Part shown: piece after piece, positions 11,754 through 32,458 of the stretch | How the letters are laid out: each line of letters starts with the position of its first letter | Numbering within the stretch: position 1 is the stretch's first letter | From: an uncultured Gammaproteobacteria bacterium | GTDB lineage: Bacteria > Pseudomonadota > Gammaproteobacteria > JBBQDK01 | Assembly: GCA_963778665.1 (NCBI GenBank) | Contig: CAVZVG010000003.1 | Span: 192,813-256,812, forward strand | Length of the DNA: 64,000 nt | Direction of reading: 5' to 3' | Made by a program: the position numbers and the translations under genes | The notes under the pieces: generated by a model | Databases searched by the model: none | Told to the model about the DNA's origin: nothing | Seen by the model: only the letters and a program-made list of their open reading frames with translations

Positions 11754-11761
11754 GAAAGCTA

Positions 11762-12228: not shown

Positions 12229-12241
12229 GTAATAAAGGAAT

Positions 12242-12631: not shown

Positions 12632-12710
12632 CAAATCAATCAAGATCGCCCGCAAAAAGCGCGGGCTGGGACCGCCGAAAAGCGGCGGCCCCTTATTTCA
12701 AACGTTAGCT
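12627..12710 (+). repeat. attC 5 (R'' CATAACA; R' GTTAGCT 12704)
   Basis: R''/R' pair with an internal palindrome (GCGGGCTGGGACCGCCG..CGGCGGCCCC). Confidence 0.7.
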
Positions 12711-12724
12711 GCAAAAAACAAAAA

Positions 12725-12961: not shown

Positions 12962-13037
12962 AAACCGGTCTTGTTCGCTGAAAAGCTCCGTTCATGGTAT
13001 GAAAAGATGTGGCCAGGTAGTCATGTTTGAAAAGACA

Positions 13038-13093
13038 GCTAACACGTCGGCCCAGTCGGACGGCTTCGCCGCCGCTGGCCTCAATCGTTAGAA
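13038..13093 (+). repeat. attC 6 (R'' GCTAAC; R' GTTAGAA 13087)
   Basis: Paralogue of attC 1. Confidence 0.7.
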
Positions 13094-13126
13094 GTCACAA
13101 GGATAGCTTCGGTAGAGAGAAAAATA

Positions 13127-13768
13127 ATGGGTGTAAATTCCACAACCGAAATGTATGAAAGGGCGCGACAGGATTTATACGCGAGCATCGTCTATTTCGG
13201 AATAATGAATGATCTATTTTATTCTGACACCGACCGATGTCTTAAGGCATGCATAGAAAAGAATGAGGCAATTCAGCGCAATGAGATAGATTATAACGAG
13301 CTTATGTTTTGGTACCGTTCTCTGATTCGTACATTCTTTGCTTATGTTGAAGGAATAACCTTCTTAATGAGGCAAATAATAATATGGGCGCATGAGCGAT
13401 CAGACATCGTGTTAAGCGATATTGAAGTACTGCGATTGCGTGAAGAAAGGCTAGTGCAAGATGGGGAATCAATCAAAACCTTCGCAAAATTCAATACTGT
13501 CCTTGAAAATGTGTCATTAGCATTCAAATATTTCCCTAAAATGTTTCATTCAAATTATCAGCTACAGAAAACCGATTATAGTTGGATTAGTTTTAGGTCA
13601 GCGTTGAAAGCGCGAGATTCAATTACTCATCCAAAACTGATTGAGGACTATTTACTGCCAGCAGAAGTATTGCAGCAACTTCAGGAGTCAATTGTGTGGT
13701 TCCATGAATCGATGGGCGAGCTAACGAAAAGTTGTATAGATGGGAGGAAATTAGGTAATGACTCCTAA
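13127..13768 (+). CDS. cassette 7: hypothetical 213-aa protein with C-terminal Rx4H (ARDSITHP) HEPN-like motif
   Basis: ORF track entry; predicted all-alpha. The motif call is tentative. Confidence 0.45.
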   Translation: MGVNSTTEMYERARQDLYASIVYFGIMNDLFYSDTDRCLKACIEKNEAIQRNEIDYNELMFWYRSLIRTFFAYVEGITFLMRQIIIWAHERSDIVLSDIEVLRLREERLVQDGESIKTFAKFNTVLENVSLAFKYFPKMFHSNYQLQKTDYSWISFRSALKARDSITHPKLIEDYLLPAEVLQQLQESIVWFHESMGELTKSCIDGRKLGNDS

Positions 13769-13837
13769 CAAGTCACTCCTGTCGACCGCCTACGTCGCTG
13801 GAGCTCCTTCGGAGACGGCAGAGTTTAATCGTTATGT
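13764..13837 (+). repeat. attC 7 (R'' CCTAACA; R' GTTATGT 13831)
   Basis: R''/R' pair read directly. Confidence 0.7.
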
Positions 13838-13852
13838 TGCTAAAGGATAGAT

Positions 13853-14122
13853 ATGGACTTTGAGTGGGACAAGGAAAAGGCCCTTACCAACCACCGTAAG
13901 CATAGCGTCACATTTTTTGAGGCGCGCGAGGCATTTGGTGACGAGTTGTCTCTGACAGTACCGGACCCTGATCACTCTATTGATGAGGATAGGTACTTGA
14001 TTTTCGGGAAATCGTTATCGGGGCGGTACCTTGTCGTGTCATATACTGAAAGAGCAAGCCGAATTCGGCTAATATCTGCTAGAGAAATGACGCCGCACGA
14101 GCGGAAAGCTTATGAAAATTAA
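13853..14122 (+). CDS. brnT: cassette 8: BrnT toxin (DUF497 ribonuclease)
   Basis: MDFEWDKEKALTNHRKHSVTFFEAREAFGDE..DPDHSIDEDRYLIFGKSLSGRYLVVSYTERASRIRLISAREMTPHERKAYE matches the BrnT consensus. Confidence 0.85.
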   Translation: MDFEWDKEKALTNHRKHSVTFFEAREAFGDELSLTVPDPDHSIDEDRYLIFGKSLSGRYLVVSYTERASRIRLISAREMTPHERKAYEN

Positions 14123-14315
14123 AGACGACGAAATGCGTGAAGAGTATCCCGAAGATCTCATCAAATCGGGTGAGCGCGGGAAGTATGCGAAGCAATATCG
14201 TGAAGGGACGAATGTAGTTCTTATCGATCCTGATTTGCACGAATTATTTCCAGACTCAGAATCAGTAAATAAGGCACTAAGGGACTATGTGGCCAAAAAA
14301 CGTAGCGCAACATAA
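14112..14315 (+). CDS. brnA: cassette 8: BrnA antitoxin (DUF4415/CopG-like)
   Basis: KDDEMREEYPEDLIKSGERGKY..VVLIDPDLHELF..ALRDYV matches BrnA. Overlaps brnT by 11 bp. Confidence 0.8.
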   Translation: MKIKDDEMREEYPEDLIKSGERGKYAKQYREGTNVVLIDPDLHELFPDSESVNKALRDYVAKKRSAT

Positions 14316-14397
14316 CAACAGGATCAACCCGACGCAAAACCGTTGCGCAGTTTTGTTCCCTCGCTGCACTCGGCGCGGGTTACCCTGACCGTTAGCT
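14311..14397 (+). repeat. attC 8 (R'' CATAACA; R' GTTAGCT 14391)
   Basis: R''/R' pair read directly. Confidence 0.7.
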
Positions 14398-14413
14398 CTC
14401 AAAAGGACACATC

Positions 14414-14764
14414 GTGAACTGGCTTGAAATGTCGGAATCTGAAATCTTGGCAATTGCCAACCCGATAATGGACAACCTCATGCAAGCCTCGACCGACATC
14501 GACCATGAACGGAATGTCAAAGACTTTACCGACCATCTAAAGTCAATTGTTACAAAAGAAAACCTAGAGGCACAGTGCAAGGAATACCAAGCCAAGCTCG
14601 GTTACTTCGAAAAAAGAGAATTCGTAGCTGTGTTTAGAAAAGAAACGGACGCCGCTATCTTCTGGAAGCAGAGATATACAAAATCCTCAGGAGAGCACAT
14701 CGCGTTTCTTCGGCTAATCTGCGTTGATGGAAAAATCTTAGTTCAAAATGTCTCCGTTACATAA
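14414..14764 (+). CDS. cassette 9: hypothetical protein (116 aa; GTG start or ATG 14429)
   Basis: ORF track entry. Confidence 0.45.
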   Translation: MNWLEMSESEILAIANPIMDNLMQASTDIDHERNVKDFTDHLKSIVTKENLEAQCKEYQAKLGYFEKREFVAVFRKETDAAIFWKQRYTKSSGEHIAFLRLICVDGKILVQNVSVT

Positions 14765-14769
14765 GGCGA

Positions 14770-14831
14770 GCTAACAAGCGCTTGGAGGCGGACGCGCAAA
14801 AGCAACGCGCCGCTTAAGTTGTTCGTTAGCT
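14770..14831 (+). repeat. attC 9 (R'' GCTAACA; R' GTTAGCT 14825)
   Basis: Read directly; shares TTGGAGGCGGACGCG with attC 15. Confidence 0.7.
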
Positions 14832-14843
14832 CCTAAAAATAAT

Positions 14844-15218
14844 ATGTTCATATTTAACTCGCAAAATGGAGATCCAATGCTTCTTGATTCTATTCAAGGG
14901 TTGCGTGATCTATGCGAGCGGTTTGTTCGGTTTCTAGAGTCATCGTCACAAGAGGTTTCGTTCCCGGCAATTACAGTCGGCGATCCAGCACCCTATGAGG
15001 AGCTTCTTGGTGGTCTGCGCGTCAAGAAAGATGAGAGCAATAATTGTCTATCCTTCTCAAATGACGGGTGGCTACTGTTATCGGCAACACACAAAGACCT
15101 TTCTGATTTCAGCAAGGCGCTGCTCGTAAAGAAAGATGGTGACCATAATCATTGGTATAGCCGTCCAGTTTCGCTCATCATAGAAGCAGATGAATGGAGG
15201 GCAAGCAGTGAGAGCTAA
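14844..15218 (+). CDS. cassette 10: hypothetical protein (124 aa)
   Basis: ORF track entry. Confidence 0.45.
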   Translation: MFIFNSQNGDPMLLDSIQGLRDLCERFVRFLESSSQEVSFPAITVGDPAPYEELLGGLRVKKDESNNCLSFSNDGWLLLSATHKDLSDFSKALLVKKDGDHNHWYSRPVSLIIEADEWRASSES

Positions 15219-15290
15219 CAAGCCAATCAAATTCGCTCCCTTCGGTCGCCGGACGTCGCTTCCGCTCCGCCGTTTATTGGAACGTTAGAT
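15214..15290 (+). repeat. attC 10 (R'' GCTAACA; R' GTTAGAT 15284)
   Basis: Paralogue of attC 4. Confidence 0.7.
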
Positions 15291-15301
15291 TTAGGAAGAA
15301 T

Positions 15302-15786
15302 ATGGAAGACATAATCAAAATTTTAGGAGGTACTGCGATAGCAATTGGTGCAGTAGCATGGCTTATAAAAGCCCTAGTGAGCCACTTGCTAGGTAAAGAT
15401 GTTGAAATATTTAAGTCTAAAATAAAATATGAAGCAGAGCATGGCAATCACCTCTTGATGCAAAAAATAGAACTATATAAAGAAGCATCTAATCCCATTA
15501 TTGACTTAATTGTAAAAGCACAACACCAAGGAACTTTAAGAAAAAAGAGGATCTACAAAAATTTGATAAAGATCGTCTTGCAACAACTTCGCTATTAGCA
15601 ATGTTCGCACCCGCTGAAGTATTTGATGAATTTAATAATATGATTGATTGTGTTTATGATTCCTTTGAAGGAAAGCAGGAATGGTCATTTAATACATTTC
15701 GGATTAAAGCGGTATCATTTCTGAGCAAAGTCAGAAAAGACATTGGGTTATTTGAAGATGTACTATCTTACAAAGGGACAAGATAA
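15302..15786 (+). pseudogene. cassette 11: ~160-aa protein with N-terminal TM helix, split by a frameshift at an A6 tract (15541-15546) into ORFs 15302-15598 and 15601-15786
   Basis: The second reading frame is open from 15505, so a single slip in the A-run joins ..GTLRKK to EDLQKFDKDRLATTSLLAMFAPAEVF.. Confidence 0.5.
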
Positions 15787-15787
15787 A

Positions 15788-15863
15788 TATAACAAGCGGG
15801 TCAAGGTCGCTTGCGGTCGCTGGGATAGCCAAAATGCGGCGGCCCCTTACCCTATCGTTAGAT
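15788..15863 (+). repeat. attC 11 (R'' TATAACA; R' GTTAGAT 15857)
   Basis: R''/R' pair read directly. Confidence 0.7.
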
Positions 15864-16440
15864 GCTCGCAAGGAAACGCATCACATGGCCACTGAAGAAG
15901 ACAGCACACCAGAGAATCGCGCACGACGCGTCGAGAAGCAGTGGCGCCACGAGGAACGCGCGCTTAGCAGCACACATGCCTTCTGGGAACACTGGTCGCG
16001 CTGCACGGCGCAATTGCCGGCTTAGCTGGTGTCCTAGTAGCTCTGCCATCGACTGAATTCCCGCCGCTTGCATTCGCGGTCATGGGGCTTCTATCGATAG
16101 GGTCTGTCTCCGCTTTGGCCGCATAAACGCGCTCTCGATAAAGGCAGACGAAGCTCGCGCGGCACATTTCGCAGTGACGAGCAGGCAAAAATGGCCGGAT
16201 GATTTTGACTCGAATAGATCTGATGGAGAGTCAAAGGCCTTAGAGCAAGAGTACAAGCGAGAACGATCGATCATTGAGCCGGTCGCGCTGTGGTTTCTCT
16301 TGGTTAACGCATTGATCTTTGCCATCTTCGCCGCATTGCCTAGCCTGTGCCGGGCGTGCATCTAACACATCGCTGGAGCGCACGCGTGGGATATAAAGTG
16401 CCAAGCCCAAACCGTTGCAGCCGCGCACCTAGCTCAACCG
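15858..16440 (+). other. cassette 12 (583 bp, GC ~55%): coding content ambiguous
   Basis: Candidate ORFs are + strand 15885-16025 (47 aa) and 16174-16365 (63 aa, hydrophobic), and - strand 16080-16361 (93 aa). None is convincing. Confidence 0.3.
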
Positions 16441-16446
16441 TTAGAT
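16362..16446 (+). repeat. attC 12 (R'' TCTAACA; R' GTTAGAT 16440)
   Basis: R''/R' pair read directly. Confidence 0.65.
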
Positions 16447-16455
16447 TCCAAAACT

Positions 16456-16791
16456 ATGAATACCAGACCAAAAAATCATTTGTTAATACTGGTCGTTTTG
16501 CTGGCAGTACTATTTCCTGTTCACACAATCGCAGCTTCAATTGAGAGGGCTGACAAAAAGGATGTCGAGATGCTACTTAATGCGGCCACTAGCATGAACT
16601 CCGCATATTGGGCCTCATTCATAGGTGAAACCAGAGGCAGGGTGTACATTGAATATACCACTGCAATTCAATCAGACAGCTTATTTTCCAATGAACCAAA
16701 ACACGTAGTTTATTGGCTACCTTCATCTGAATTAACAAAAGAACAACTTGAGAAATTCAAGGAATATAAGAAAAAATATGAAACACATTAG
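16456..16791 (+). CDS. cassette 13: secreted protein with signal peptide (111 aa)
   Basis: MNTRPKNHLLILVVLLAVLFPVHTIAAS.. looks like a typical signal peptide. Confidence 0.5.
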   Translation: MNTRPKNHLLILVVLLAVLFPVHTIAASIERADKKDVEMLLNAATSMNSAYWASFIGETRGRVYIEYTTAIQSDSLFSNEPKHVVYWLPSSELTKEQLEKFKEYKKKYETH

Positions 16792-16819
16792 GGGCGGGAG
16801 TCACTTAATAAAAAATCAT

Positions 16820-16908
16820 CTAACATCGCGTTCGAGGCCGACGCGGTGAGACATCACATCGTTTCCTGTTGTGCTCGTTCCCCGCGCGGGTTAACGCGGA
16901 CGTTAGGC
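16820..16908 (+). repeat. attC 13 (R'' TCTAACA; R' GTTAGGC 16902)
   Basis: R''/R' pair read directly. Confidence 0.65.
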
Positions 16909-16913
16909 GCGAG

Positions 16914-17180
16914 ATGAAAACAGGTATTACGTTAACTGTTATAGGCGGGCTTATGGTGGCAGCACCTGGAATACTGCTCGCAATACTGGCTATCCGCGTA
17001 GTGATTATTGAGTTGGGAATGTCCAGTCTGGTGCCATATGGTCAAGGCATGGTGTATGGTGCATTCGGAATGGCAGTTGTTATGTTCCTATTCATTGGTG
17101 TACCGGGGTTGTTTATTTTGCGAGCAGGTATGAGAAGCATCACATTACACAAAAATGAAATCAGTAACACTCATGCATAG
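16914..17180 (+). CDS. cassette 14: small membrane protein (88 aa, 2-3 TM)
   Basis: ATG 16914 (MKTGITLTVIGGLMVAAPGILLAILAI..). The ORF track's start at 16869 lies inside attC 13. Confidence 0.45.
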   Translation: MKTGITLTVIGGLMVAAPGILLAILAIRVVIIELGMSSLVPYGQGMVYGAFGMAVVMFLFIGVPGLFILRAGMRSITLHKNEISNTHA

Positions 17181-17187
17181 TCTTGCG

Positions 17188-17249
17188 CCTAACAATTCGG
17201 CCCAGTGCAACGGCTGCTACGCAGCCGCGCCTGGCCTTAGCCGTTAAGC
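17188..17249 (+). repeat. attC 14 (R'' CCTAACA; R' GTTAAGC 17243)
   Basis: R''/R' pair read directly. Confidence 0.65.
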
Positions 17250-17335
17250 GTTGTTCGCGTATCCTGTGATTCCAACCTGAAAAAAAATCGGCGGAACAGC
17301 CCAATCACAGACTTCAACAAAAAAATAAAAGGAGA

Positions 17336-17914
17336 ATGAATATGAGTAAAGTAATCGTAACCGAATTCGTCTCACTCGACGGCATTATTGAGGCCCCAGG
17401 CGGAGGCGAGGGCTTTAAACACGCAGGTTGGACGTTCAAGATCAGTCGCGGGAAGGATGGCGACCAATTCAAGCTCGACGAGACCCGCGACTCCGAGGCT
17501 CTGCTGTTGGGGCGGGTGACATATGAAGGCTTTGCCGCAGCCTGGCCGTCGCTGAAGGGCGACTTCGCTGATAAGTTAAACAGCATGCCCAAGTTCGTCG
17601 TCTCCTCGACACTCAAGGAGCCTGAATGGAACAACTCGACGGTGCTCAAGGGCGACGTGGTGGAGGAGGTCCAGAAGCTAAGGCAGAGGCTGGGTGGGAA
17701 CATCGTCGTCCACGGCAGCGCCCAACTCGTGCAGACGCTTGTCGAACACAACCTCGTTGACGAGTTGCGGCTGATGGTCTTCCCTGTCATCCTCGGGACG
17801 GGCAAGCGCCTCTTTGGCAACATGAGCGACAAAAAGTCCCTTCGGCTAGTCAGCTCGAAGACGGTTGGCGACGGCGTCGTCATCCTCATCTATGAGCTAG
17901 CACGGGATAAGTAA
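17336..17914 (+). CDS. cassette 15: dihydrofolate-reductase-like protein (RibD C-terminal domain family), GC ~55%
   Basis: SKVIVTEFVSLDGIIEAP..LLLGRVTYEGFAAAWP..MPKFVVSSTL..NIVVHGSAQLVQTLVEHNLVDELRLMVFPVILGTGKRLF matches the RibD_C/YwjB-type DHFR-like family. Confidence 0.6.
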   Translation: MNMSKVIVTEFVSLDGIIEAPGGGEGFKHAGWTFKISRGKDGDQFKLDETRDSEALLLGRVTYEGFAAAWPSLKGDFADKLNSMPKFVVSSTLKEPEWNNSTVLKGDVVEEVQKLRQRLGGNIVVHGSAQLVQTLVEHNLVDELRLMVFPVILGTGKRLFGNMSDKKSLRLVSSKTVGDGVVILIYELARDK

Positions 17915-17953
17915 GCAAGCCTTCCCTGAGGCGGCGACCACGAATCCGCAACG

Positions 17954-17985
17954 CCTAACAAAGAGCTGGAGGCGACGCGTTATAT
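17954..17985 (+). repeat. attC 15, atypically short (32 bp; R'' CCTAACA, R' GTTATAT 17979)
   Basis: Resembles only the left half of attC 9; probably internally deleted. Confidence 0.5.
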
Positions 17986-18008
17986 ATAGGGTAATTTGGT
18001 AATCGTCA

Positions 18009-18260
18009 ATGCCTGAAAGAACTCTAATAATTCTTGTAGGATTAATCTTGTCAGTGTTAGTTGGTTGCGTCATGATCAGGAATTGGCCGAAATCTGGGAA
18101 GATGGGTGTAAACACAAAAACAGTACATTGCCCTCGTTGTGGATTGAAAGCGCCGATGGTAAGAAAGCCAAAGAACCTAAGACAGATACTTTGGGGTGGA
18201 TGGACTTGCGAAGGTTGTAATTGTGAGTTCGATAAGTACGGAAATGAAGTTAATACATAA
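18009..18260 (+). CDS. cassette 16: membrane-anchored zinc-ribbon protein (83 aa, CPRC..CEGC)
   Basis: ORF track entry; N-terminal TM helix plus two CxxC pairs. Confidence 0.5.
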   Translation: MPERTLIILVGLILSVLVGCVMIRNWPKSGKMGVNTKTVHCPRCGLKAPMVRKPKNLRQILWGGWTCEGCNCEFDKYGNEVNT

Positions 18261-18329
18261 CAAGTCATTCGAGTACGCCCCTTCGAGGCCGGACGCGCTG
18301 ACGCGCGTCACACAAATCCGAACTTATGC
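18256..18329 (+). repeat. attC 16 with mutated core (R'' CATAACA; R' CTTATGC instead of GTTATG)
   Basis: Paralogue of attC 3. The conserved G of GTT is replaced by C. Confidence 0.55.
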
Positions 18330-18347
18330 ATCAAGGAGAAGATTCGA

Positions 18348-18743
18348 TTGAAATCACATCCGGTAATCACGCAGATTGAAAGGGCGGATAAAGCAATTGT
18401 TGCTGAAGATTTCGATACGCTTCTCGATATTTATACTGATGATGCAGTACTGGTTGTTGAGCCAGGAAGAAATGCTGTTGGAAAAGATGACATTAGAAAA
18501 GCATTTGAGGCCATAGCGGTATATTTTAGAAATGGGCTGCATGTTGAACAAGATGGCTTGGAGATTCTTGAGTCAGGTAATACTGCCTTAGTATTGGCAA
18601 ATACAATTCTATTAGCGCCTAATTACCCTGCAATAACTCGTAAAGCGACATACGTATTTATTAAGTCCTCTAACGGTAATTGGCTTTGTTCAATAGACAA
18701 TTCATATGGTCATGAAATTATTGGTACAGGAAATAATGCATAA
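18348..18743 (+). CDS. cassette 17: NTF2-like/SnoaL-like (DUF4440-type) protein, TTG start with AAGGAG RBS
   Basis: ..DFDTLLDIYTDDAVLVVEPGRNAVGKDDIRKAFEAI.. is the SnoaL-like fold pattern. Confidence 0.5.
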   Translation: MKSHPVITQIERADKAIVAEDFDTLLDIYTDDAVLVVEPGRNAVGKDDIRKAFEAIAVYFRNGLHVEQDGLEILESGNTALVLANTILLAPNYPAITRKATYVFIKSSNGNWLCSIDNSYGHEIIGTGNNA

Positions 18744-18809
18744 CAAGTCTCTCGTTTGGACGCAAACTACGCTGCGCTTCGTTTGCGCTGAACAGCTTCA
18801 ACGTTAGAC
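18739..18809 (+). repeat. attC 17 (R'' CATAACA; R' GTTAGAC 18803)
   Basis: R''/R' pair read directly. Confidence 0.7.
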
Positions 18810-18853
18810 ATCACAAGCGCGCACATTACTACCCCACACTGATCGGAGGCCCC

Positions 18854-19279
18854 ATGAACGCCACAAAGATCAAAGTAGGTCAATTGGGTATCGACTACAT
18901 CGTGGATGGCTCTCACACGGAGAGTCTCGGAATGTTCGAACTGACAGTGCCTCCAGGATCGAACGTTCCACCGCCGCATAGTCACACCAACAACGACGAA
19001 TGCGTGTATGTCCTCGCCGGAACACTTCGGTACTCGGTCGGAGCTGAGACGCGCGATCTGACAGTAGGGCAAGCGATGAGCACGCCAAGAGGCGCGGTTC
19101 ACGCTTTCTCGAACCCCTTCGCCGAGACCGCTCGCGCCTTGATCGTCATGTCTCCGGACATCGGAGCCCAGTACTTCAAGGACGTCGCTGCGGTGATCAA
19201 TGCCGGAGGGCCTCCGGACAAGGCCGCCCTGGTCTCGGTGATGTCCAGGTATGGGCTTGTCCCGGCTGCGCCGGCGTGA
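18854..19279 (+). CDS. cassette 18: cupin-domain protein (141 aa; GC ~60%)
   Basis: Cupin motifs PPHSHTNNDECVYVLAGT and GAVHAF. Confidence 0.55.
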   Translation: MNATKIKVGQLGIDYIVDGSHTESLGMFELTVPPGSNVPPPHSHTNNDECVYVLAGTLRYSVGAETRDLTVGQAMSTPRGAVHAFSNPFAETARALIVMSPDIGAQYFKDVAAVINAGGPPDKAALVSVMSRYGLVPAAPA

Positions 19280-19349
19280 CCACACCCAAGCCTTCCATCG
19301 AGCGGACGTCCTCCGGCAAGCTTCGTTTGCTTGCCGCCGCCGCTCATGT
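19279..19349 (+). repeat. attC 18 remnant (degenerate; homologous to left half of attC 2)
   Basis: CAAGCCTTCCATCGAGCGG matches CAAGCTTCCATCGGAGCGG of attC 2. R'' is ACCACAC and R' is CTCATGT. Confidence 0.4.
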
Positions 19350-19387
19350 CGAATGTCAGGCCCAGCAAGTACAGAGAGGAGAGCGCA

Positions 19388-19732
19388 ATGAGCAACGAAC
19401 AGGTGGCGCCCGAGACGAAAGGCGTTACGGTGAAGTTACTTTCAACGGTTGATCTTGGCCCTGAGATCGAGGGCATGGCAGGGCGCCAACTTCGAATGCG
19501 TATGGTGACTATCGAGCCTGGAGGCGTCTTCGGCCCGATTCACGACCATAAAGACAGACCAGGCACTGTCTACATACTGCAAGGAACGATCACTGACCAT
19601 CGAAATGGAGTCGCTACGGACTATGGGCCGGGAGTGGGCTGGCCCGAGGATAGGAACACCACACACTGGCTTGAGAACAGAGGAACGATTCCGGCGGTGG
19701 AGATCTCGGTCGATATAGTGAGGCATGAGTAA
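19388..19732 (+). CDS. cassette 19: cupin-domain protein (114 aa from ATG 19388, RBS AGAGGAGAG)
   Basis: GPIHDHKDRPGTVYILQGT..NTTHWLENRG matches the cupin_2 pattern. Confidence 0.55.
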   Translation: MSNEQVAPETKGVTVKLLSTVDLGPEIEGMAGRQLRMRMVTIEPGGVFGPIHDHKDRPGTVYILQGTITDHRNGVATDYGPGVGWPEDRNTTHWLENRGTIPAVEISVDIVRHE

Positions 19733-19762
19733 GCTCAGGCCCGACATCTGACACGGTCGGGT

Positions 19763-19867
19763 CTAACACACGGATCAACCGGACGCGATAGTCGCTACGC
19801 TTTGGTGGACACCCTGAACTAATGATTCAGGAGTGTCAAAGATGCCGAAGCCAGGCGTTGGTTGTTT
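19763..19867 (+). repeat. attC 19 (R'' TCTAACA; R' GTTGGTT/GTTGTTT)
   Basis: Paralogue of the attC-like sequence at 22322-22440 (shared TTTGGTGGACACCYTGAA..GGAGTGTMAAGATGCC). Confidence 0.55.
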
Positions 19868-19885
19868 TAAATTGGGAATAAATTC

Positions 19886-20284
19886 ATGAAGAAATTAAAA
19901 AATACAGCGTACAACGCATTGGTTATAGTAGAAGATATTGGCTTACTGGTCATAGCCATTTCGACAGTCATTGCAATGAGCTTTGAAATTGTATCTATGT
20001 TTGAAGCCATGAAGGTAACCTTGGCAGACCTTTTGTTACTTTTTATATACCTTGAGGTATTGGCAATGATTGGAATCTACCTTAAGTCAGGGCAGCTGCC
20101 TGTTCGTATGCCCCTTTACATTGCAATAGTAGCGGTGGCACGTTACATGATTCTTGATATGAAGAATTTGGATACATTAAGAGTTCTTGGTCTTTCAGGC
20201 GCAGTATTTATTCTTGCTGTATCTATTCTCGCTATTCGATATGGCCATATTAAATTCCCATATGATGATAAAGAAGACAGCTAA
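19886..20284 (+). CDS. psiE: cassette 20: phosphate-starvation-inducible protein PsiE family
   Basis: LFIYLEVLAMIGIYLKSGQLPVRMPLYIAIVAVARYMILD aligns with E. coli PsiE [41 protein letters not shown]. Confidence 0.65.
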   Translation: MKKLKNTAYNALVIVEDIGLLVIAISTVIAMSFEIVSMFEAMKVTLADLLLLFIYLEVLAMIGIYLKSGQLPVRMPLYIAIVAVARYMILDMKNLDTLRVLGLSGAVFILAVSILAIRYGHIKFPYDDKEDS

Positions 20285-20353
20285 CAAGCCAATCAAGTTT
20301 TCCTGTAATCAGCACGGGCTTGGACGTCACAAAAAGCATGGCGCCACTTATTT
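20280..20353 (+). repeat. attC remnant (R'' GCTAACAAGCCAATCAAG.. like attC 10; R' degenerate CTTATTT)
   Basis: Left end is identical to the attC 10 start. The right half is lost or degenerate. Confidence 0.35.
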
Positions 20354-20387
20354 ATGTCGGTTTGCCTTTTTTATATAGACGATATTC

Positions 20388-20561
20388 ATGCAAGCAGAGA
20401 AGCAGTTTCAATTGTTGGAATCAGTCCTTAACAAATGCAAGGGAGAGATTGGTAAAGATTTTGAAAGTTATAGAAATCATGTTTGCCGTATTGTTGATTT
20501 GTCAGGGTGTCCGGCGAGCGTTTCTGCATCGTTTCCCTTGCGGAATATTCTTTATCCGTAG
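20388..20561 (+). CDS. cassette 21: small ORF (57 aa, MQAEKQFQLLESVLNKCKGEIGKDFESYRNHVCRIVDLSGCP..)
   Basis: Below the ORF-track size cut-off; it is the only plausible ORF in this cassette. Confidence 0.3.
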   Translation: MQAEKQFQLLESVLNKCKGEIGKDFESYRNHVCRIVDLSGCPASVSASFPLRNILYP

Positions 20562-20638
20562 AAGGGAAATAATTTCAGTAATGGCAGTCACGCATACTGC
20601 ACGAAACTCCGCAAAGTGGCGCACGCCTTAGGACGCCC

Positions 20639-20722
20639 CATAACAAATCAGTCGAGTATGCCCGCCATTCTGGCGGGGCCCTACGCCTGCTTCGCAGGTG
20701 CGTCTCAATTCAATCGTTAATT
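20639..20722 (+). repeat. attC 21 (R'' CATAACA; R' GTTAATT 20716)
   Basis: R''/R' pair with an internal palindrome. Confidence 0.65.
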
Positions 20723-20746
20723 GCCAAAATAATGAAGCAATCCTAA

Positions 20747-21505
20747 ATGATTATGAAACTGCTCGAATTCCCACATTCTCACTATTGCGAAAAAGCGCGC
20801 TGGGCACTCGACTACAAAGGGATGCCATTTCAGGCCGTGGCAATTATGCCGGGGTTTCACATGATAACGGTACGCAAGTACGCTCCGGATACATCTGTTC
20901 CAGTGTTATTGGACCATGGTGAAGCAGTGCAAGGTTCGAGCGAAATCATAAACTACCTCGAACAGAGGCAGGCGTCATACCCTTTGAATCCTGCGGATGC
21001 TGATGAGCTCCGAGCATGCTTGGAAATAGAGCGCGCGATGGATGAAAGACTTGGGGAGAATATTCGTCAGGTTTTATACAATAGCCTGCTGGCTTACCCG
21101 GATTTTATCCGACATTGCTTTACCCATCCGATGTCCCGATTACGACAACTGATTTTCAGTCTCTTTTACCCGATTCTACGATACAAGATATATCAAACCT
21201 ATGTGATTTCCGCTGCGAAGGTAGAACAGGCGAGACGAGATTTCGATGTTGCCATGAGTGAAATAGAGAACATCCTTGAACAGAGACAGTATCTCGTTGG
21301 TGAGCGATTTACCCGTGCGGACTTGTCGGTAGCATCAATGCTCTCATTGCTTGTTATGCCGCCGGAGCATCCGTTTCCATGGCAAGAAATACCCGATCCG
21401 CAGGCAAGAGACTTTCTTGAAGGGTTTCAAGATCATCCCGTGTCTGAATGGGTTCGTAAAATGTATCGATGCCATCGATTGCGCGAGAGAGCACACTCCG
21501 AATGA
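20747..21505 (+). CDS. cassette 22: glutathione S-transferase family protein
   Basis: N-terminal thioredoxin-like GST fold (KLLEFPHSHYCEKARWALDYKGMPFQAV..VPVLLDHGE) followed by a helical GST C-terminal domain. Confidence 0.6.
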   Translation: MIMKLLEFPHSHYCEKARWALDYKGMPFQAVAIMPGFHMITVRKYAPDTSVPVLLDHGEAVQGSSEIINYLEQRQASYPLNPADADELRACLEIERAMDERLGENIRQVLYNSLLAYPDFIRHCFTHPMSRLRQLIFSLFYPILRYKIYQTYVISAAKVEQARRDFDVAMSEIENILEQRQYLVGERFTRADLSVASMLSLLVMPPEHPFPWQEIPDPQARDFLEGFQDHPVSEWVRKMYRCHRLRERAHSE

Positions 21506-21520
21506 TTAGCCATTCAGCCG

Positions 21521-21578
21521 GCGCGTCAAGTCATTCGCTTAGCTCATTGGGACGCTCAAAAGCTGCGCATTTATCGCG
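21521..21578 (+). repeat. attC 22 remnant (paralogue of attC 16; R'' decayed to GCGTCAA, R' CTTATGC)
   Basis: ..CAAGTCATTCG..CTTATGCGAACC mirrors attC 16. Confidence 0.4.
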
Positions 21579-21622
21579 ACCCTTATGCGAACCTTGGTCG
21601 TCGTGAGAACATCGACCCGATC

Positions 21623-22309
21623 ATGAGACTTCACAAGCTGGCTGACGGAATCTGGGTGCTGGACGGCAACCCCATTTCTTTTGTTACTTTCCCATACGAA
21701 ATACGCTCTACCGTTATCGAAATAGGGGGAGGTGAGCTGTTTATTCATTCTCCGGTGCAATTATCCGCAGTGGATCTATTGAAGACGCTGCCTGGTCAGG
21801 TGAAATACATCGTTTCGCCAAATAAGCTCCACAGTCTGTTTCTTGGGGATTGGAAAAAGGCGTTTCCGGAAGCCAAGCTTTACGCGCCGCCTGGCTTGAA
21901 AGCCAAGCGTCCGAACTTATCGTTCTATAAGGAGCTTGCAGATGAACCGGAACCGGAGTGGCGGGAAGTATTAAAGCAAAAGATAGTTCGAGGAAGTTGG
22001 TTCATGTCGGAAGTCGTTTTTTTTCACGCACCATCGGAAACCCTGATCCTTGGGGATCTGATAGAAAACCACAACCCACTGAGATTTGGGTTGCTTCACC
22101 GAGCAATTGGTTCAGCGAACGCCATGCTCGCGCCAAACGGAACCACGCCGCGCAATTATCGATGGACGTTCTTTCGACGCAAAGAGGTTCGCGAGGATTT
22201 GCAAGAAATTATGAGCTGGAATGCCAAACGCGTTGTTATGTCCCACGGCCCGATCGTGGAAATCGGAGCGCAAGAGTTTTTGAGGAATGCATTTCAATGG
22301 GCGCTGTAG
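21623..22309 (+). CDS. cassette 23: DUF4336 family protein (metallo-beta-lactamase-like fold)
   Basis: ELFIHSPVQL..KYIVSPNKLHSLFLGDWKKAFPEAKLYAPPGL..EVVFFHAPSETLILGDL matches the DUF4336 pattern. Confidence 0.55.
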   Translation: MRLHKLADGIWVLDGNPISFVTFPYEIRSTVIEIGGGELFIHSPVQLSAVDLLKTLPGQVKYIVSPNKLHSLFLGDWKKAFPEAKLYAPPGLKAKRPNLSFYKELADEPEPEWREVLKQKIVRGSWFMSEVVFFHAPSETLILGDLIENHNPLRFGLLHRAIGSANAMLAPNGTTPRNYRWTFFRRKEVREDLQEIMSWNAKRVVMSHGPIVEIGAQEFLRNAFQWAL

Positions 22310-22321
22310 GTCAAATGCGCC

Positions 22322-22440
22322 GCCTGACAAGCAGTTGCAGTGGAGCGTGATAGTTCCTACGGTTTGGTGGACACCTTGAATTGGCGGCTCTGGAGTGTAA
22401 AGATGCCTAAGCAAGGACCCGGAACAACGTATAAGTACAG
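22322..22440 (+). repeat. attC-like remnant (paralogue of attC 19; cores degenerate: CCTGACA .. CGTATAAG)
   Basis: Sequence homology to 19790-19850. Confidence 0.4.
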
Positions 22441-22506
22441 TGAGAAGTTTAAAGCAACCGCAACCATCGACCGCCGAAGAATGCGAATATTGGATTCAGA
22501 GAAACA

Positions 22507-22881
22507 ATGAAATACATCGGCACGGACTTTATTCATATAAGCATCCTGGACACACGATCTGTGCTGGTGGAAGCAATGGATGCAGTTGAAATCGATCTGG
22601 AGAAGGCAAAATACGCGAATCAACTGATCGAAAATGAGATGCCGGGTGACTATGGAATGATAATCGATAGAAAAGCCGATTACTCGATAGTGCCGGTCGA
22701 TGTATACAACATACTCAATAATATTGAGAAACTGAAGGCCATCGCAATCGTGACATATAATAAGAAGAGTTATTTTCCCATATCGATCGAGCAAAAATTA
22801 TATAAAGGCAAGTTGGAAGTGTTTCAATCGATACAACAGGCGCATGAATGGATCGATCAGGTATTGAATGAAACCATCTGA
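22507..22881 (+). CDS. cassette 24: hypothetical protein (124 aa, AT-rich)
   Basis: ORF track entry; no clear attC follows. Confidence 0.4.
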   Translation: MKYIGTDFIHISILDTRSVLVEAMDAVEIDLEKAKYANQLIENEMPGDYGMIIDRKADYSIVPVDVYNILNNIEKLKAIAIVTYNKKSYFPISIEQKLYKGKLEVFQSIQQAHEWIDQVLNETI

Positions 22882-23225
22882 CGATGCGGTTAAGACGCTG
22901 TATACGGACAACCAAGCTGACAATCGCATGCACACTGCCGGAACAAAGAATCGATAGTTTCATGCGCAGCTTTCTGCGCCCGGTGCTGCGGGTAGATATG
23001 TTTCAATCCCATCGCTGCATCGTATCGATGGTGGTTTTATCGGTGAAGCCGGAAGCATAACGATGCAATCCACCGGTCTGGGTTCGGTAGTCCGGCGATT
23101 TCAAGGGATATTACTAAAACACAGCAAGATCCGGGTTGCGGGCGAGTGCTTGATTCTCCATGATTGACTCGTAATGAGGTAAATACCTGTCAGTACGGGA
23201 AATGAAGTGTGAGAGGATTCGCAAG

Positions 23226-26402: not shown

Positions 26403-26550
26403 GATTCCACTATTAGAACAACGGTATTCCACAGTAGCAAGTAAATTTGGCTACATGCATCCGAATGCAACTTACATAAGTGAGATGTAACGTAGGGGCG
26501 GGTCGCGGACCCGCCCTGGTTGGCACACCCTCAAGCTCATGCAGGGCGGG

Positions 26551-26745
26551 CCTGAAAAATGATTTCTGAAAAGCATTCACCACAGAGGACACGGAGAGGT
26601 CTTTTTGAAAAGCATTGACCACGGGGAACACGGGGGACACGGGGATTACTGCTGAAAACCCCGTGCCCCCCGTGTTCCCCGTGGTAGTCGCTGTTCAATC
26701 TGGAAACAAATATTTCTCCGTGTCCTCCGTGGTGAATGCTTTTTG
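26551..26745. repeat. nested-hairpin repeat, family A (copy A1)
   Basis: Outer inverted repeat AAAAGCATTCACCACAGAGGACACGGAGAG / TTCTCCGTGTCCTCCGTGGTGAATGCTTTT. Inner inverted repeat ACCACGGGGAACACGGGGGACACGGGG / CCCCGTGCCCCCCGTGTTCCCCGTGGT. Confidence 0.8.
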
Positions 26746-26842
26746 TTAGGCACACGTAGAGTGCTTGTAGCCTAATCAACTGACTTCTGAGTGATTGCTG
26801 AATATTGTGTAATCAAGGACACGCCGATCTGCGAGGGTCCGA

Positions 26843-28050: not shown

Positions 28051-29955
28051 ACAATGACGCCGATGAATATCGCCACGGAAAATGTCATGGACGACATCCA
28101 CACCACACTGCGCCGCGTGTTCGGCTTTCCCGCCTTCCGTCCTCACCAGCAGGAGATTATCGAGGGTCTGCTGGAAGGGAAGGATGCCTTTGTGCTGATG
28201 CCGACGGGCGGCGGCAAATCGCTGTGTTACCAGATCCCGGCCCTGCACCGGCGCGGTGTCGGCATCGTGGTCTCGCCGCTGATTTCGCTGATGAAGGATC
28301 AGGTCGATGCGCTGCGTGCCAACGGTGTCGCCGCGGCCTTCTACAACTCGGCGCTGGAATCGCAGGAGGCCCGTCAGGTGCTGGCGCGGCTGCATGCCGA
28401 TGAGCTCGATCTGCTCTATGTCAGTCCCGAGCGACTGCTGACGCCGGCCTTCCTGGACCGCATCAGCGATATCGACATCGCCCTGTTCGCCATCGACGAG
28501 GCGCATTGCGTCTCGCAATGGGGACATGATTTCCGTCGCGAATATGCCCAGCTCGGCATGCTGCGCGAACACTTCCCCGCCGTGCCGCTGGTGGCGCTCA
28601 CGGCCACCGCCGATGCGCAGACCCGCGAGGATATCGTGCGCGTGCTCGGCCTGAGTGCGGCGACCCGTTATGTCACCGGCTTCGACCGGCCCAATATCCG
28701 TTATACCGTGCTGGAGAAGCACAAACCCTTCGATCAGTTGACGCGCTTTCTGCTGAATCGCCGCAGCCAGGCGGGCATCGTCTATGCCTTGAGCCGCAAA
28801 CGCGTCGACGAGATCGCGCAGAAGCTGCAGGACGAGGGCCTGCGCGCCGCGGCCTATCATGCCGGCCTGCCTGCGTCTCAGCGGCAGGATGTGCAGGAGC
28901 GCTTTCTGCGCGACGATGTGCTGATCGTCGTCGCGACGGTGGCCTTCGGCATGGGTATCGACAAACCCAACGTGCGCTTCGTCGTGCACTACGACATACC
29001 CAAGAACATCGAAGGCTATTACCAGGAAACCGGCCGCGCCGGCCGCGACGGTCTGCCCGCCGAGGCGCTGCTGCTGTACGGCGCGCAGGATATCATCACC
29101 GTGCGGCGCCTGATCGAGAACAGTGAAAGTCAGGAGCAGCAGCGCATCGAACTGCACAAGCTCAATGCCATGGCGGCGCTCGCCGAGAGCGTCAGCTGCC
29201 GACGCCGCGTGCTGCTGAATTATTTCGGCGAGCGCCTGGAACAGGATTGCGGCAACTGCGATATCTGCCTGGACCCGCCGGAACGCTTCGATGCCAGCGT
29301 CGATGCGCAGAAGGCCTTGTCCTGCGTCTATCGCGTCGGCCAGCGTTTCGGGGTCAAGCATGTGGTCGATGTGTTGCGCGGCGCGGACAACGAGCGCATC
29401 CGCTCTTTGGGTCATCACACGCTGTCGACCTACGGCGTGGGCAGCGACAGGAGCGAACCGGAATGGACGTCCATCCTGCGCCAGCTCATTCATCACGGTT
29501 ATCTGATCCAGGACATCGCCAACTACTCGGTGCTGAATCTGACCGAGGCGGCGCGGCCGCTGCTGCGCGGCGAGCAGCAGATCCAGCTCGCCAAGCCGCG
29601 CATCCGCGAACAGATCAAGAAGAAGGTGACGAAGTCACCGGCCAGTCAGGGGCCATACGACGAGGCGCTGTTCGAGGAGCTGCGCGCATTGCGCAAACGC
29701 CTGGCGGATACGCAAGGCGTGCCGCCCTACATCGTGTTCGGTGATGCCACGCTGATACAGATGGCGCGTGACAAACCGATGAGCGAAGGTGATCTGCTCG
29801 GCGTCATCGGCGTCGGCCAGCACAAGCTGGAGAAATACGGCAAGGATTTTCTGGATGCGATAACAGAGTACAGCCTGCCATCTTCAAACCGTAAGTCCCC
29901 TCTCCCTCCGGGAGAGGGCCAGGGTGAGGGGGGTAATGATCGCGAAGTCCAGTGA
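28051..29955 (+). CDS. recQ: ATP-dependent DNA helicase RecQ (start ambiguous: 28051, 28060 or 28087)
   Basis: FGFPAFRPHQQEIIEGLLEGKDAFVLMPTGGGKSLCYQIPAL.., DEAH, zinc-binding and HRDC regions align with E. coli RecQ. The last ~20 codons run into REP element D1. Confidence 0.9.
   Translation, partial: TMTPMNIATENVMDDIHTTLRRVFGFPAFRPHQQEIIEGLLEGKDAFVLMPTGGGKSLCYQIPALHRRGVGIVVSPLISLMKDQVDALRANGVAAAFYNSALESQEARQVLARLHADELDLLYVSPERLLTPAFLDRISDIDIALFAIDEAHCVSQWGHDFRREYAQLGMLREHFPAVPLVALTATADAQTREDIVRVLGLSAATRYVTGFDRPNIRYTVLEKHKPFDQLTRFLLNRRSQAGIVYALSRKRVDEIAQKLQDEGLRAAAYHAGLPASQRQDVQERFLRDDVLIVVATVAFGMGIDKPNVRFVVHYDIPKNIEGYYQETGRAGRDGLPAEALLLYGAQDIITVRRLIENSESQEQQRIELHKLNAMAALAESVSCRRRVLLNYFGERLEQDCGNCDICLDPPERFDASVDAQKALSCVYRVGQRFGVKHVVDVLRGADNERIRSLGHHTLSTYGVGSDRSEPEWTSILRQLIHHGYLIQDIANYSVLNLTEAARPLLRGEQQIQLAKPRIREQIKKKVTKSPASQGPYDEALFEELRALRKRLADTQGVPPYIVFGDATLIQMARDKPMSEGDLLGVIGVGQHKLEKYGKDFLDAITEYSLPSSNRKSPLPPGEGQGEGGNDREVQ
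29897..29934. repeat. REP-like palindrome, family D (copy D1)
   Basis: CCCCTCTCCCTCC GGGAGAGGGCCAGGGTGAGGGGGG; overlaps the recQ 3' end. Confidence 0.7.
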
Positions 29956-30048: not shown

Positions 30049-30084
30049 CCCCCTCACCCTGGCCCTCTCCCGAAGGGAGAGGGG
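30049..30084. repeat. REP-like palindrome, family D (copy D2, inverted orientation)
   Basis: CCCCTCACCCTGGCCCTCTCCCGAAGGGAGAGGGG read directly. Confidence 0.7.
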
Positions 30085-30136
30085 ATTATTTCTTTTTACG
30101 GCTGTTCAATTTTTCAGAATTTTGCAGGCGAAGGGC

Positions 30137-30290
30137 GGGCAAACGCGGTTTTATTTGCCCACAGAGATTCGGAGCTGGATTGGAACACGTGGGCAACGAG
30201 TTGCCCACCCTGCTTGGCTCTGGATTATACAAACCCCGGCTCCCCTCTCCCACGCGTGGGAGAGGGGTTGGGGGAGAGGGAAGTTAACCG
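30137..30290. repeat. composite tandem repeat unit 1 (three hairpins: GGGCAAA..TTTGCCC, GTGGGCAA..TTGCCCAC, CCCCTCTCCC..GGGAGAGGGG)
   Basis: ~75% identical to unit 2 (30327-30486), with the same hairpin order. Confidence 0.65.
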
Positions 30291-30326: not shown

Positions 30327-30486
30327 GACAAACGGGTTGTATTTGCCCACGCGGATTCAGCACCGGAATGGAGCATGTGGGCAACTTGTGCCCACCCTAC
30401 TTGGCTGTCTGACAGCGGTACCGGGCGTTGTGGCCGCGATTCGCCCTCTCCCCCGGCCCCTCTCCCGCTGGCGGGAGAGGGGAGTT
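30327..30486. repeat. composite tandem repeat unit 2 (ends with REP D4 CCCCTCTCCCGCTGGCGGGAGAGGGG)
   Basis: Homologous to unit 1; abuts the rhlE stop. Confidence 0.65.
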
Positions 30487-32024: not shown

Positions 32025-32220
32025 GCGGGGTGATGCTCCTAGTATGGCCTACCCAGCGTTGTTCACGTGGGCCGGTCTAGGCGGGATTGTTTGAGTGCTT
32101 CGAGGCGAGGCAGAGAGCTTGTCGCTACGGGGTCGGTGCAGACCGGAGTGCGCCGAGTGGCGGCACTATAACAGATAAAGTGGTGCGTGCGTGCGGTTAA
32201 TGCAGAAAAAAGCATTTTGG

Positions 32221-32428
32221 GCCGCCAAGGACGCCAAGAACGCCAAGAACGCCAAGAAATGCAAAAATAGCTGCTCTGACTGATTGTCATTCCCGCATGT
32301 GCGGAATGACAGAGTTCGAATCAATCAATAGTGCGAAAAATGATACGGCCTTGTCTCTGCCGTCCCGATATACGGTGTAGTGGATGCTCGAATCGGATTT
32401 TCTTGGCGCTCTTGGCGTCCTTGGCGGC
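32221..32428. repeat. MITE-like element, family B (copy B1, 208 bp) with 9-bp iteron-like inverted termini and internal palindrome 32285-32311
   Basis: Left end GCCGCCAAGGACGCCAAGAACGCCAAGAACGCCAAGAAA; right end TCTTGGCGCTCTTGGCGTCCTTGGCGGC. The internal sequence TGTCATTCCCGCATGTGCGGAATGACA is a perfect inverted repeat. Confidence 0.7.
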
Positions 32429-32458
32429 TCAAAAGAAATTTCATAGGATAATGCGCCC

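Follow-up and report, generated by a model that had tools for sequence, protein, structure and literature searches.

Nested hairpin repeats with 9-nt arm units in a gammaproteobacterial genome as candidate gene-less forms of PDDEXK_3 nuclease cassettes

Introduction

Small genes held within long stems are known from 23S rRNA intervening sequences, in which a widespread and patchily distributed open reading frame (ORF) of the PF05635 family lies in the loop of a stem inserted into the host transcript, and of which ORF-less stem versions exist. Intergenic arrays of tandem short units, at times in inverted form, are found in heterocystous cyanobacteria as short tandemly repeated repetitive (STRR) heptamers, for which we know of no associated gene. 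Among interspersed palindromes, repetitive extragenic palindromic (REP) sequences are defined as palindromes of 20–40 bp, one end of which carries the tetranucleotide tag GTAG or CGTC (PMC3733652). Here, a stretch of 64,000 nt from an uncultured gammaproteobacterium (lineage JBBQDK01; assembly GCA_963778665.1, contig CAVZVG010000003.1, positions 192,813 to 256,812 of the forward strand), referred to below as the window, was analyzed with respect to Family A, a set of large intergenic hairpin repeats that an earlier note, made from the sequence alone, had described at six sites.

The arms of these hairpins are arrays of 9-nt units, and hairpins of the same kind flank genes encoding PDDEXK_3/GxxExxY nucleases in other genomes. 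Family A is probably the gene-less local form of a widespread palindromic class whose full-length form encloses such a nuclease gene. The protein family concerned, PF13366, has been listed with function “Unknown” and with “multiple transfers” between bacterial divisions (PMC3424549).

Results

Family A repeats are hairpins within related hairpins

To describe the architecture of Family A, the sequence was read at each of the six noted sites, all of which were found to carry it, as three complete copies (A1, A2, and A5), one interrupted copy (A4), and two truncated copies (A3 and A6; Table 1). Both diagnostic motifs occurred far above their frequency in shuffled sequence, with 16 window matches to CACGGGGAACACGGGG at two or fewer mismatches (0.07 in shuffles) and 14 to ACCACGGAGGACACGGAGA at three or fewer (0.03 in shuffles). 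A complete copy exhibits three layers, a CACGGGG-unit hairpin lying within a CACGGAG-unit hairpin that itself lies within a GAGCGCCTGA/TCAGGCGCTC stem. The repeat finder recovered the families together with their nested inverted repeats (entries D2, D3, D4, D8, I7, I20, and I21), bearing out the earlier description of an outer inverted repeat around an inner CACGGGG hairpin. The positions given in that description were right, but the palindrome runs further out than the spans assigned to it, to an outermost stem of the form GAGCGYCTGA...TCAGRCGCTC; corrected spans are listed in Table 1. The outer hairpin arms have the form AAAAGC(A/C)(T/A)T(C/G)ACC-ACGGAGGA-CACGGAGA and the inner arms the form AAAAGCATTGACC-ACGGGGAA-CACGGGGGA-CACGGGG. 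Inner and outer arms share one design, so that the element amounts to one hairpin lodged in the loop of another of related type. The inner hairpins of A2 and A6 are reverse complements of one another, as had been noted for their loops (I4; 82 nt, 89%), and Family A copies thus occur in both orientations, A2 being inverted relative to A1, A5, and A6. Predicted folds were markedly more stable than those of shuffled controls, both for A1 as RNA (−128.9 kcal/mol versus −67.6 ± 4.6; z −13.4) and for A5 as DNA (−68.4 versus −25.7 ± 3.2; z −13.3). The window was annotated with codon-usage gene calls from a heuristic, self-trained caller that performed sensibly on it, and by these calls all six copies are intergenic. 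The promoter-proximal and convergent spacers proposed earlier are corrected accordingly: co-directional genes flank A1, A3, and A6, divergent genes A2 and A4, and convergent genes A5.

A class of hairpins with 9-nt arm units spans bacterial phyla

For comparison across genomes, a hairpin class was set up in this analysis, defined by arms of tandem 9-nt units of the form NN-C-R-C-R-R-R-G with at least two units per arm. A scan for ACCACGGRGRACACGGRG in one genome per species (596 Gb) yielded at least 120 loci (numbered here with the prefix L), with 139 matches among those listed. By arithmetic, approximately 140 single chance matches are expected in 596 Gb. A third unit stood in register at 75 of the 139 listed matches (chance of ∼0.0005 per site), and a complementary array lay no more than 450 nt away from 70 of them; in-register third units and complementary arms together indicate that the matches are not chance occurrences. 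Strict hairpins, with at least two exact units in both arms and arms no more than 250 nt apart, were present in 57 of the 120 listed loci. Judged by record titles, their carriers represent at least nine phyla (Acidobacteriota, Verrucomicrobiota, Planctomycetota, beta-/gamma-Pseudomonadota, Myxococcota/delta, Chloroflexota, Spirochaetota, Actinomycetota, and Gemmatimonadota). Hairpin arrays with 9-nt units are not lineage-specific, and relatives of Family A occur far outside the window, to which the earlier note had allowed that the copies might be confined.

Arrays of period 9 were the most frequent in the listed loci (295, versus 54 of period 8 and 15 of period 10), a tally that is partly circular in that the loci had been preselected for one period-9 array. 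The unit cores form a network whose members are one or two transitions apart (CACGGAG, CACGGGG, CACAGAG, CGCAGAG, CACGAAG, CGCGAAG, CGCAAAG, and CGCCAAG). The class also exhibits a polarity that holds on both strands: among adjacent pairs, 112 had the purine-rich array as their 5′ arm, versus 12 with the opposite order. A-rich sequence followed by TTNA precedes the 5′ arm, and the mirror image of this profile, T-rich, follows the 3′ arm. Family A fits the class in its units (CACGGAG in the outer and CACGGGG in the inner hairpins of A1, A2, A5, and A6) and equally in its polarity and flank form (..TTNA-CC / GG-TNAA..), the window flank GAAAAGCATTGACC matching those of L324 and L039/L055. Nesting of hairpins is likewise seen in other lineages (L032 and L035, and by eye L003, L004, L054, and L115).

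Covariation between arms was assessed in hairpins chosen on invariant positions only, giving 272 unit pairs with four variable core positions. Watson–Crick pairs were observed at these positions in 251, 212, 265, and 251 of the 272 pairs, compared with 194, 157, 216, and 175 expected for independent arms, and both A-T and G-C alternatives were in use. Arms thus co-vary strongly across the class, a property whose absence the earlier note had named as telling against its proposal. G.T and A.C mismatches were balanced (104 versus 114). Sense and antisense RNA folds were equally stable (28 versus 30, p = 0.63), indicating that the hairpins are strand-symmetric, and a strand-specific RNA structure was rejected on this basis.

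Several readings of the repeated unit were considered and rejected. A supply of Shine-Dalgarno sequence to downstream genes by the purine arrays was seen in a few contigs of the IMG/VR database, a minority after dereplication, and most phage copies are antisense to flanking genes. A coding origin of the 9-nt period is at odds with the array frame relative to the ORF, which was distributed 13/21/13 across loci, arrays being in frame only in the beta/gamma clade. To our knowledge, none of the recognition sequences of CsrA, Hfq, DnaA (DnaA box), sigma factors (−35 element), FtsK-orienting polar sequences (KOPS), or Chi fits the conserved positions. The 9-nt tandem DNA of the DRT10-type reverse transcriptase (bioRxiv 10.1101/2025.10.16.682844) has a different motif, and nothing links it to the arrays beyond a coincidence of period.

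A distinct form of array was observed in IMG/VR, where 122 of 129 matches lacked a complementary arm; solitary arrays of three units are conserved in many viral contigs. Many solitary arrays (CTCCGTG.. in the mRNA sense) precede by 6–35 nt a conserved gene pair encoding 91-aa and ∼485-aa proteins (e.g., L184 at 2150–2300, L161, L150, and L123). Such viral solitary arrays might be a packaging or regulatory site.

PDDEXK_3 nuclease genes are flanked by 9-nt-array hairpin arms

In a metagenome-assembled genome of Chthoniobacter (L089), CACGGGG arms were found 390 nt apart with an ORF between them, and the ORFs between the arms of L089 and L095 both belong to PF13366 (PDDEXK_3) and TIGR04256 (GxxExxY protein). 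Eighty metagenomic loci encoding relatives of the L089/L095 protein were fetched, 71 of which had no less than 120 nt of sequence to either side of the gene. At a score of at least 12, an inverted repeat flanked 51 of the 71 PDDEXK_3 genes, compared with 5.4 when flank partners were shuffled and with 5 of 99 neighboring complete ORFs in the same loci (72% versus 5%). At a score of at least 16, the corresponding values were 33 of 71, 2.4, and 1 of 99. PDDEXK_3 genes are specifically associated with 9-nt-array hairpins, the arms at these genes being 9-mer arrays of many core types. Strict period-9 arrays, of which 30 were detected upstream and 41 downstream, exhibited the polarity of the class, with a purine-rich arm upstream of the ORF in 22 cases versus 5 and a pyrimidine-rich arm downstream in 28 versus 6. 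None of the sampled loci contained a transposase between such arms.

The nuclease gene is closely framed by its arms, the 5′ arm mostly ending 0–60 nt before the ORF and the 3′ arm of L243, L244, and L258 beginning a few nucleotides past the stop codon. The ORF was co-oriented with its upstream neighbor in 51 cases versus 9, an arrangement that fits expression of a cassette through read-through from its host transcript. An array core was shared by 18 of 104 protein pairs at least 60% identical, compared with 59 of 1431 pairs overall. A separate arrangement was observed in L327 (IMG/VR; 1350–2000), where a distant PDDEXK_3-like gene is flanked by direct, not inverted, repeats (gaaatggtatttagaattggtatttaaaatttgatttaaaat).

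The PDDEXK_3/GxxExxY protein is ∼125 aa long and belongs to a family with 29,346 representatives at 50% identity (E ≤ 0.001). Residues D70, E80, and K82 of the PD-(D/E)XK motif are invariant in an alignment of 30 sequences, and the AlphaFold model (predicted local distance difference test score [pLDDT] 95.7) assumes a PD-(D/E)XK fold. Fold searches returned generic PD-(D/E)XK neighbors only, namely lambda exonuclease, the AdnA nuclease domain, and Cas4 (E 0.006–0.05, template modeling [TM] score ≤ 0.53). The nuclease had no sequence match to a solved structure and no match in PADLOC; its PHROG match was weak and Cas4-like. Many of the representatives P0242–P0257 are ∼275 aa long with two matched stretches, and result either from gene callers joining tandem cassettes or from genuine tandem duplication. 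A literature search by exact array strings and keywords, outside of which lie the curators' free texts for TIGR04256 and PF13366, returned no description of the arrays or of a link between them and PF13366.

Family A arms are homologous to those of gene-bearing cassettes

Gene-bearing counterparts of Family A lie between T2SSE- and T2SSF-type pilus genes, where a cassette is present in L243, L244, L323 (GCA_900089805.1), and L324 (GCA_964484585.1). The arm TGCATTTACCACGGGGAACACGGGGGGCACGGGG of L243, L323, and L324 is nearly identical to the Family A inner arm AAGCATTGACCACGGGGAACACGGGGGACACGGGG, and the CACGGGG arm found at this site in L244 is more diverged. In L243, an outer-type arm, CCTCCGTGTCGCCGTGGTGAAGCATT, adjoins the inner-type arm. 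The 5′ arm is read in frame as a ..NHGEHGGHGE.. N terminus in 14 of 18 proteins of the L243 clade, and the A1 arm translates as IDHGEHGGHGDYC*, matching these N termini. Gene-bearing and gene-less forms coexist within single loci: L324 contains a gene-less hairpin with the flank GAAAAGCAATTGACC ∼2.3 kb from its cassette, and in L290 trpG has a cassette on one side and a gene-less hairpin on the other, the two sharing identical flanks.

Comparison with relatives of the source genome revealed turnover of the elements. L241 is a close relative, with an ortholog 91% identical in protein. The A2 element is absent at the orthologous site in both L241 and L242, and L242 also lacks an element at the A5 site, which holds a short plain hairpin only. 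Elsewhere, L241 contains CGCAGAG-unit hairpins, which belong to the same unit network and have a different core from Family A but an identical outermost stem. At the A2-orthologous site of L241 (∼9700–9990), a different inverted-repeat element was observed, CTAGAAACGGCAG...CTGCCGTTTCTAG, with no 9-mer hairpin.

Gene context and alternative explanations

The alternative that survives best, albeit an unlikely one in our estimation, is that the hairpins are primary and serve the host, as amplified bidirectional intrinsic terminators or as REP-like stabilizers of mRNA 3′ ends, with the PDDEXK_3 gene a secondary passenger of the loop like the ORFs of 23S rRNA intervening sequences. Gene context, as determined in bacterial loci with our own simple self-trained gene caller, is in keeping with such a role. 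Hairpins were found in 42 co-directional, 14 convergent, and 3 divergent spacers (the last being 3 of 59), where spacer length predicts 58, 22, and 20%, respectively; they start at a median of 26 nt past the upstream stop codon, and 29 versus 13 are nearer to that stop than to the next start. The A-rich upstream and T-rich downstream flanks, structure that is alike on both strands, and the short plain hairpin that L242 has at the A5 site instead of the element all point in the same direction, as does a terminator-like hairpin (47770–47802) that consists of the outermost Family A stem by itself, followed by a T-run. Intrinsic terminators have a 5–14-bp stem, a 3–8-nt loop, and an immediate U-tract, however, whereas the element stems are far longer, at 30–45 bp, and the T-run is weak (40–47% T) and displaced by 7–11 nt from the array. 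The terminator scan does not call the elements, its only calls in the window being that simple hairpin and a fragment of A5, and of the five paired copies in the window, two are in divergent spacers. Furthermore, any stable hairpin would serve as a terminator or stabilizer, so that the identical 9-nt cores across phyla are left unexplained, as are the flanking of one gene family in 72% of cases versus 5% of its neighbors and the near filling of the loop by the gene.

The earlier note had suggested a transposase of the IS200/IS605 TnpA-REP type as a partner, and it is very improbable that Family A is a classical REP or bacterial interspersed mosaic element (BIME) mobilized by a REP-associated tyrosine transposase (RAYT), i.e., an IS200/IS605-like Y1 HUH enzyme. 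Family A does resemble such elements as interspersed intergenic palindromes that occur in both orientations and in mosaic or nested arrangements with no target duplication, and a GTAG-tagged, REP-like family resides in the same window. Nonetheless, no GTAG or CGTC tag, which defines a REP (PMC3733652), was found at the arm ends of any of the six copies as read, the arms are 30–45-nt tandem 9-mer arrays instead of 20–40-bp simple palindromes, and the gene between the arms encodes a PD-(D/E)XK nuclease instead of a Y1 transposase, the carrier genomes not having been scanned for RAYT genes.

Scarcely credible is a conventional miniature inverted-repeat transposable element (MITE) moved by cut-and-paste with a DDE transposase, with terminal inverted repeats and target-site duplication: the elements are 150–200 bp long, multicopy, with long terminal inverted repeats and presence or absence between related genomes, but the target-site duplications sought at the suggestion of the note were not found, direct repeats at the ends of 140 hairpins being no commoner than in the shuffled control, the trinucleotides flanking the arms are not duplicated and mostly form neither direct nor palindromic pairs, and the sampled arms enclose no transposase. 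Equally implausible, for all the very stable predicted structure and co-varying arms, is the earlier suggestion that each copy is a discrete structured noncoding RNA (ncRNA) gene or cis-regulatory RNA, given that no Rfam family reached its threshold (sub-threshold hits were generic long-hairpin matches to microRNA precursor models), a tRNA scan found nothing, sense and antisense folds and G.T and A.C mismatches are balanced as described above, loops and interiors are not conserved, and copies occur in both orientations relative to neighboring genes. The REP/RAYT, DDE-type MITE, and ncRNA readings were each rejected on the basis that each fails its defining test.

Family B and other repeats in the window

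In addition to Family A, the window contains hairpins of a family B (Table 1), which belongs to the same class and whose CGCCAAG core is part of the 9-nt unit network. CGCCAAG arms likewise flank PDDEXK_3 genes (L274 and L302). The stem GAGCGCCTGA/TCAGGCGCTT of the simple hairpin listed last in Table 1 is the outermost stem of both Family A and the CGCAGAG-unit hairpins of L241.

Table 1. Family A copies and related hairpins, in window positions (corrected spans of A1, A2, A4, A5, and A6 are approximate).
Feature	Position	Strand	Parts	Context	Entries or method
A1, complete	26550–26751		outer arms 26567–26598 and 26715–26751; inner CACGGGG hairpin 26607–26692	between two minus-strand genes	I7, I21, and folding
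A2, complete, inverted	43488–43689		outer arms 43488–43533 and 43637–43689; inner hairpin 43550–43629		I4, I10, I11
A3, outer 3′ arm only	49388–49427			37 nt past the stop of gene 48200–49351	D3, D4
A4, split	52241–52535		outer arms 52241–52294 and 52493–52535; degenerate inner hairpin	family B element inside	
A5, complete	53099–53299		inner hairpin 53150–53241	fills convergent-gene spacer	
A6, outer 5′ arm gone	56192–56338		inner hairpin 56192–56279; outer 3′ arm 56298–56338		I20, I5
Family B element	52314–52448		CGCCAAG 9-nt units	nested inside A4	D6, D10, D14
Family B hairpin	32213–32455		145-nt interior with further small hairpin TGTCATTCCCGCATGTGCGGAATGACA		
Family B hairpin	40875–40998				repeat finder
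Simple terminator-like hairpin	47770–47802	+	GAGCGCCTGA...TCAGGCGCTT and T-run	after DEAD-box helicase gene	

Repeats of other kinds were also observed. The GTAG-tagged, REP-like hairpin family mentioned above, family C (ATGTAGCCTGGGTTGAGCGCAGCGAAACCCGGG...), is located at 3934–4025, 62191–62282, and 62603–62694 and is adjoined by an exact 241-nt direct repeat (62358–62598 and 62772–63012). A further hairpin family, CCCTCACCCTGGCCCTCTCCC...GGGAGAGGG, is found at 511–553, 29896–29932, 30049–30093, 30240–30280, and 30444–30484. A tyrosine recombinase gene (8786–10210, minus strand; PF00589 and PF13495) is followed by a low-GC stretch (0.43–0.51) that extends to 23000 and contains small plus-strand ORFs (RibD_C, PsiE, GST, cupin, DUF4336, and several without a family) separated by related 60–80-nt repeats (D13, D15, and D19). 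This region (8786–23000) has the appearance of a chromosomal integron whose cassettes form an attC-type array. Family A was rejected as an integron attC, an imperfect palindrome with RYYYAAC...GTTRRRY ends that occurs in co-oriented cassette arrays beside intI, its copies being dispersed among housekeeping genes in both orientations and the integron-like array (8.8–23 kb) being separate.

Discussion

The evidence presented here favors a reading of Family A as the gene-less form of nuclease cassettes, with arm homology, gene association, and coexistence of the two forms among its supports. The relation between Family A and the cassettes resembles, by analogy, that of REP to RAYT or of a MITE to its insertion sequence (IS). 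Among the possibilities raised by the earlier note, a novel non-autonomous mobile element comes closest, in that the arms are homologous to repeats that enclose PDDEXK_3 genes and the copies lack the gene; the mobility implied by that term is putative, and no target-site duplication was found. A protein-binding module, in the sense of a nuclease substrate, is possible as well.

Several observations weigh against this reading. Neither the window nor L241 or L242 contained a PF13366-like ORF in a hidden Markov model search of six frames, which places the Family A copies among the ORF-less relatives of cassettes that carry the nuclease; in the sampled loci, hairpins without the gene were approximately 30 times as numerous as those with it. 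Derivation could run in two directions, a cassette losing its gene or a gene entering a pre-existing hairpin. No clean filled/empty junction was obtained, the orthologous spacers of L241 and L242 being too diverged, and with neither such a junction nor a target-site duplication found, movement of the elements is putative. The proportion of paired window copies in divergent spacers is unlike that of the class as a whole, and the class-wide gene contexts come from heuristic calls. Finally, a cassette origin accounts neither for the period of 9 nt and the fixed polarity of the arms nor for the presence of identical cores in different phyla.

A model of the cassette can nevertheless be proposed. 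A cassette would reside in an intergenic spacer, usually shortly downstream of a stop codon and oriented with the host operon, from which read-through would transcribe it. Its arms could then pair, either as a long RNA stem that occludes the nuclease start region or as a DNA hairpin or cruciform, and we infer that arm pairing in read-through transcripts masks the start region. Gene-less hairpins may arise from cassettes through loss of the interior ORF and then persist. Their spread, and their mobilization or maintenance, would probably be due to action of the nuclease on the hairpin, be it a DNA cruciform, a single-stranded DNA hairpin, or an RNA stem. New units may sometimes be added within the loops of existing hairpins, and the nested architecture of Family A is consistent with insertion of this kind. 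A broader proposal, tentative and with less in its favor than the cassette relationship itself, is that PDDEXK_3/GxxExxY nucleases and 9-nt-array hairpins constitute an unrecognized, pan-bacterial class of mobile element that is driven by the nuclease, acts on or targets hairpins, and makes no target-site duplication; Family A copies would then be equivalents of REPs or MITEs mobilized in trans.

If the link between arrays and nuclease holds, it provides a first functional context for PF13366/TIGR04256 and accounts for intergenic repeats that litter Acidobacteriota, Planctomycetota, Verrucomicrobiota, Proteobacteria, and other phyla. It would also establish a second enzyme/palindrome partnership beside REP/RAYT, in which a small nuclease and a defined substrate, either DNA or RNA, allow the spread of palindromic repeats to be put to the test. 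Were the mobile-element class real, a function would be assigned to a protein family of ∼29,000 clusters at 50% identity. The 9-nt arrays generate spurious ORFs and N-terminal extensions in annotations, and the elements should be masked in the prediction of genes, terminators, and small RNAs; conversely, the arrays provide a simple searchable signature for cassettes.

Among described systems, bidirectional intrinsic terminators resemble the hairpins in being symmetric and GC-rich, in lying just past stop codons, and in having an A-tract at one flank and a T-tract at the opposite one. The stems of the present elements, however, are nested and exceed those of terminators three- to fivefold in length, their T-tract is weak and displaced, and some copies are located in spacers that contain only promoters. 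In comparison with 23S rRNA intervening sequences, which are inserted in rRNA helices and encode a different protein family, the present elements occupy intergenic spacers, and in comparison with STRR heptamers, which have a 7-nt unit and occur in one lineage only, their unit is 9 nt. Bacterial MITEs (Correia/NEMIS, ERIC/IRU, RUP, and Nezha) are similarly noncoding, 100–300 bp in length, and bounded by long terminal inverted repeats; they are derived from or paired with a gene-bearing element, polymorphic between relatives, and capable of nesting. The present elements differ from MITEs in having no target-site duplication, no DDE transposase, and terminal repeats that are internally periodic (9 nt).

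The REP/BIME and RAYT system, including REPtrons and REPINs, is similar in more respects. In both cases, short multicopy intergenic palindromes are accompanied by a far rarer enzyme gene flanked by inverted repeats, target-site duplication is absent, most copies are found at gene 3′ ends, and mosaic or dimeric arrangements occur. The enzyme, however, is a ∼125-aa PD-(D/E)XK nuclease (PF13366) here and a Y1 HUH transposase there; the arms here are built of tandem 9-nt units and lack a GTAG or CGTC tag; unit cores are shared between phyla, in contrast to the lineage-specific REPs; and the nuclease gene, unlike that of a RAYT, is found in many copies per metagenome and inside host operons. Interspersed palindromes partnered with an enzyme gene are a known arrangement, and the features that set the present class apart from those already known are its enzyme family, its periodic arms, and its breadth across phyla.

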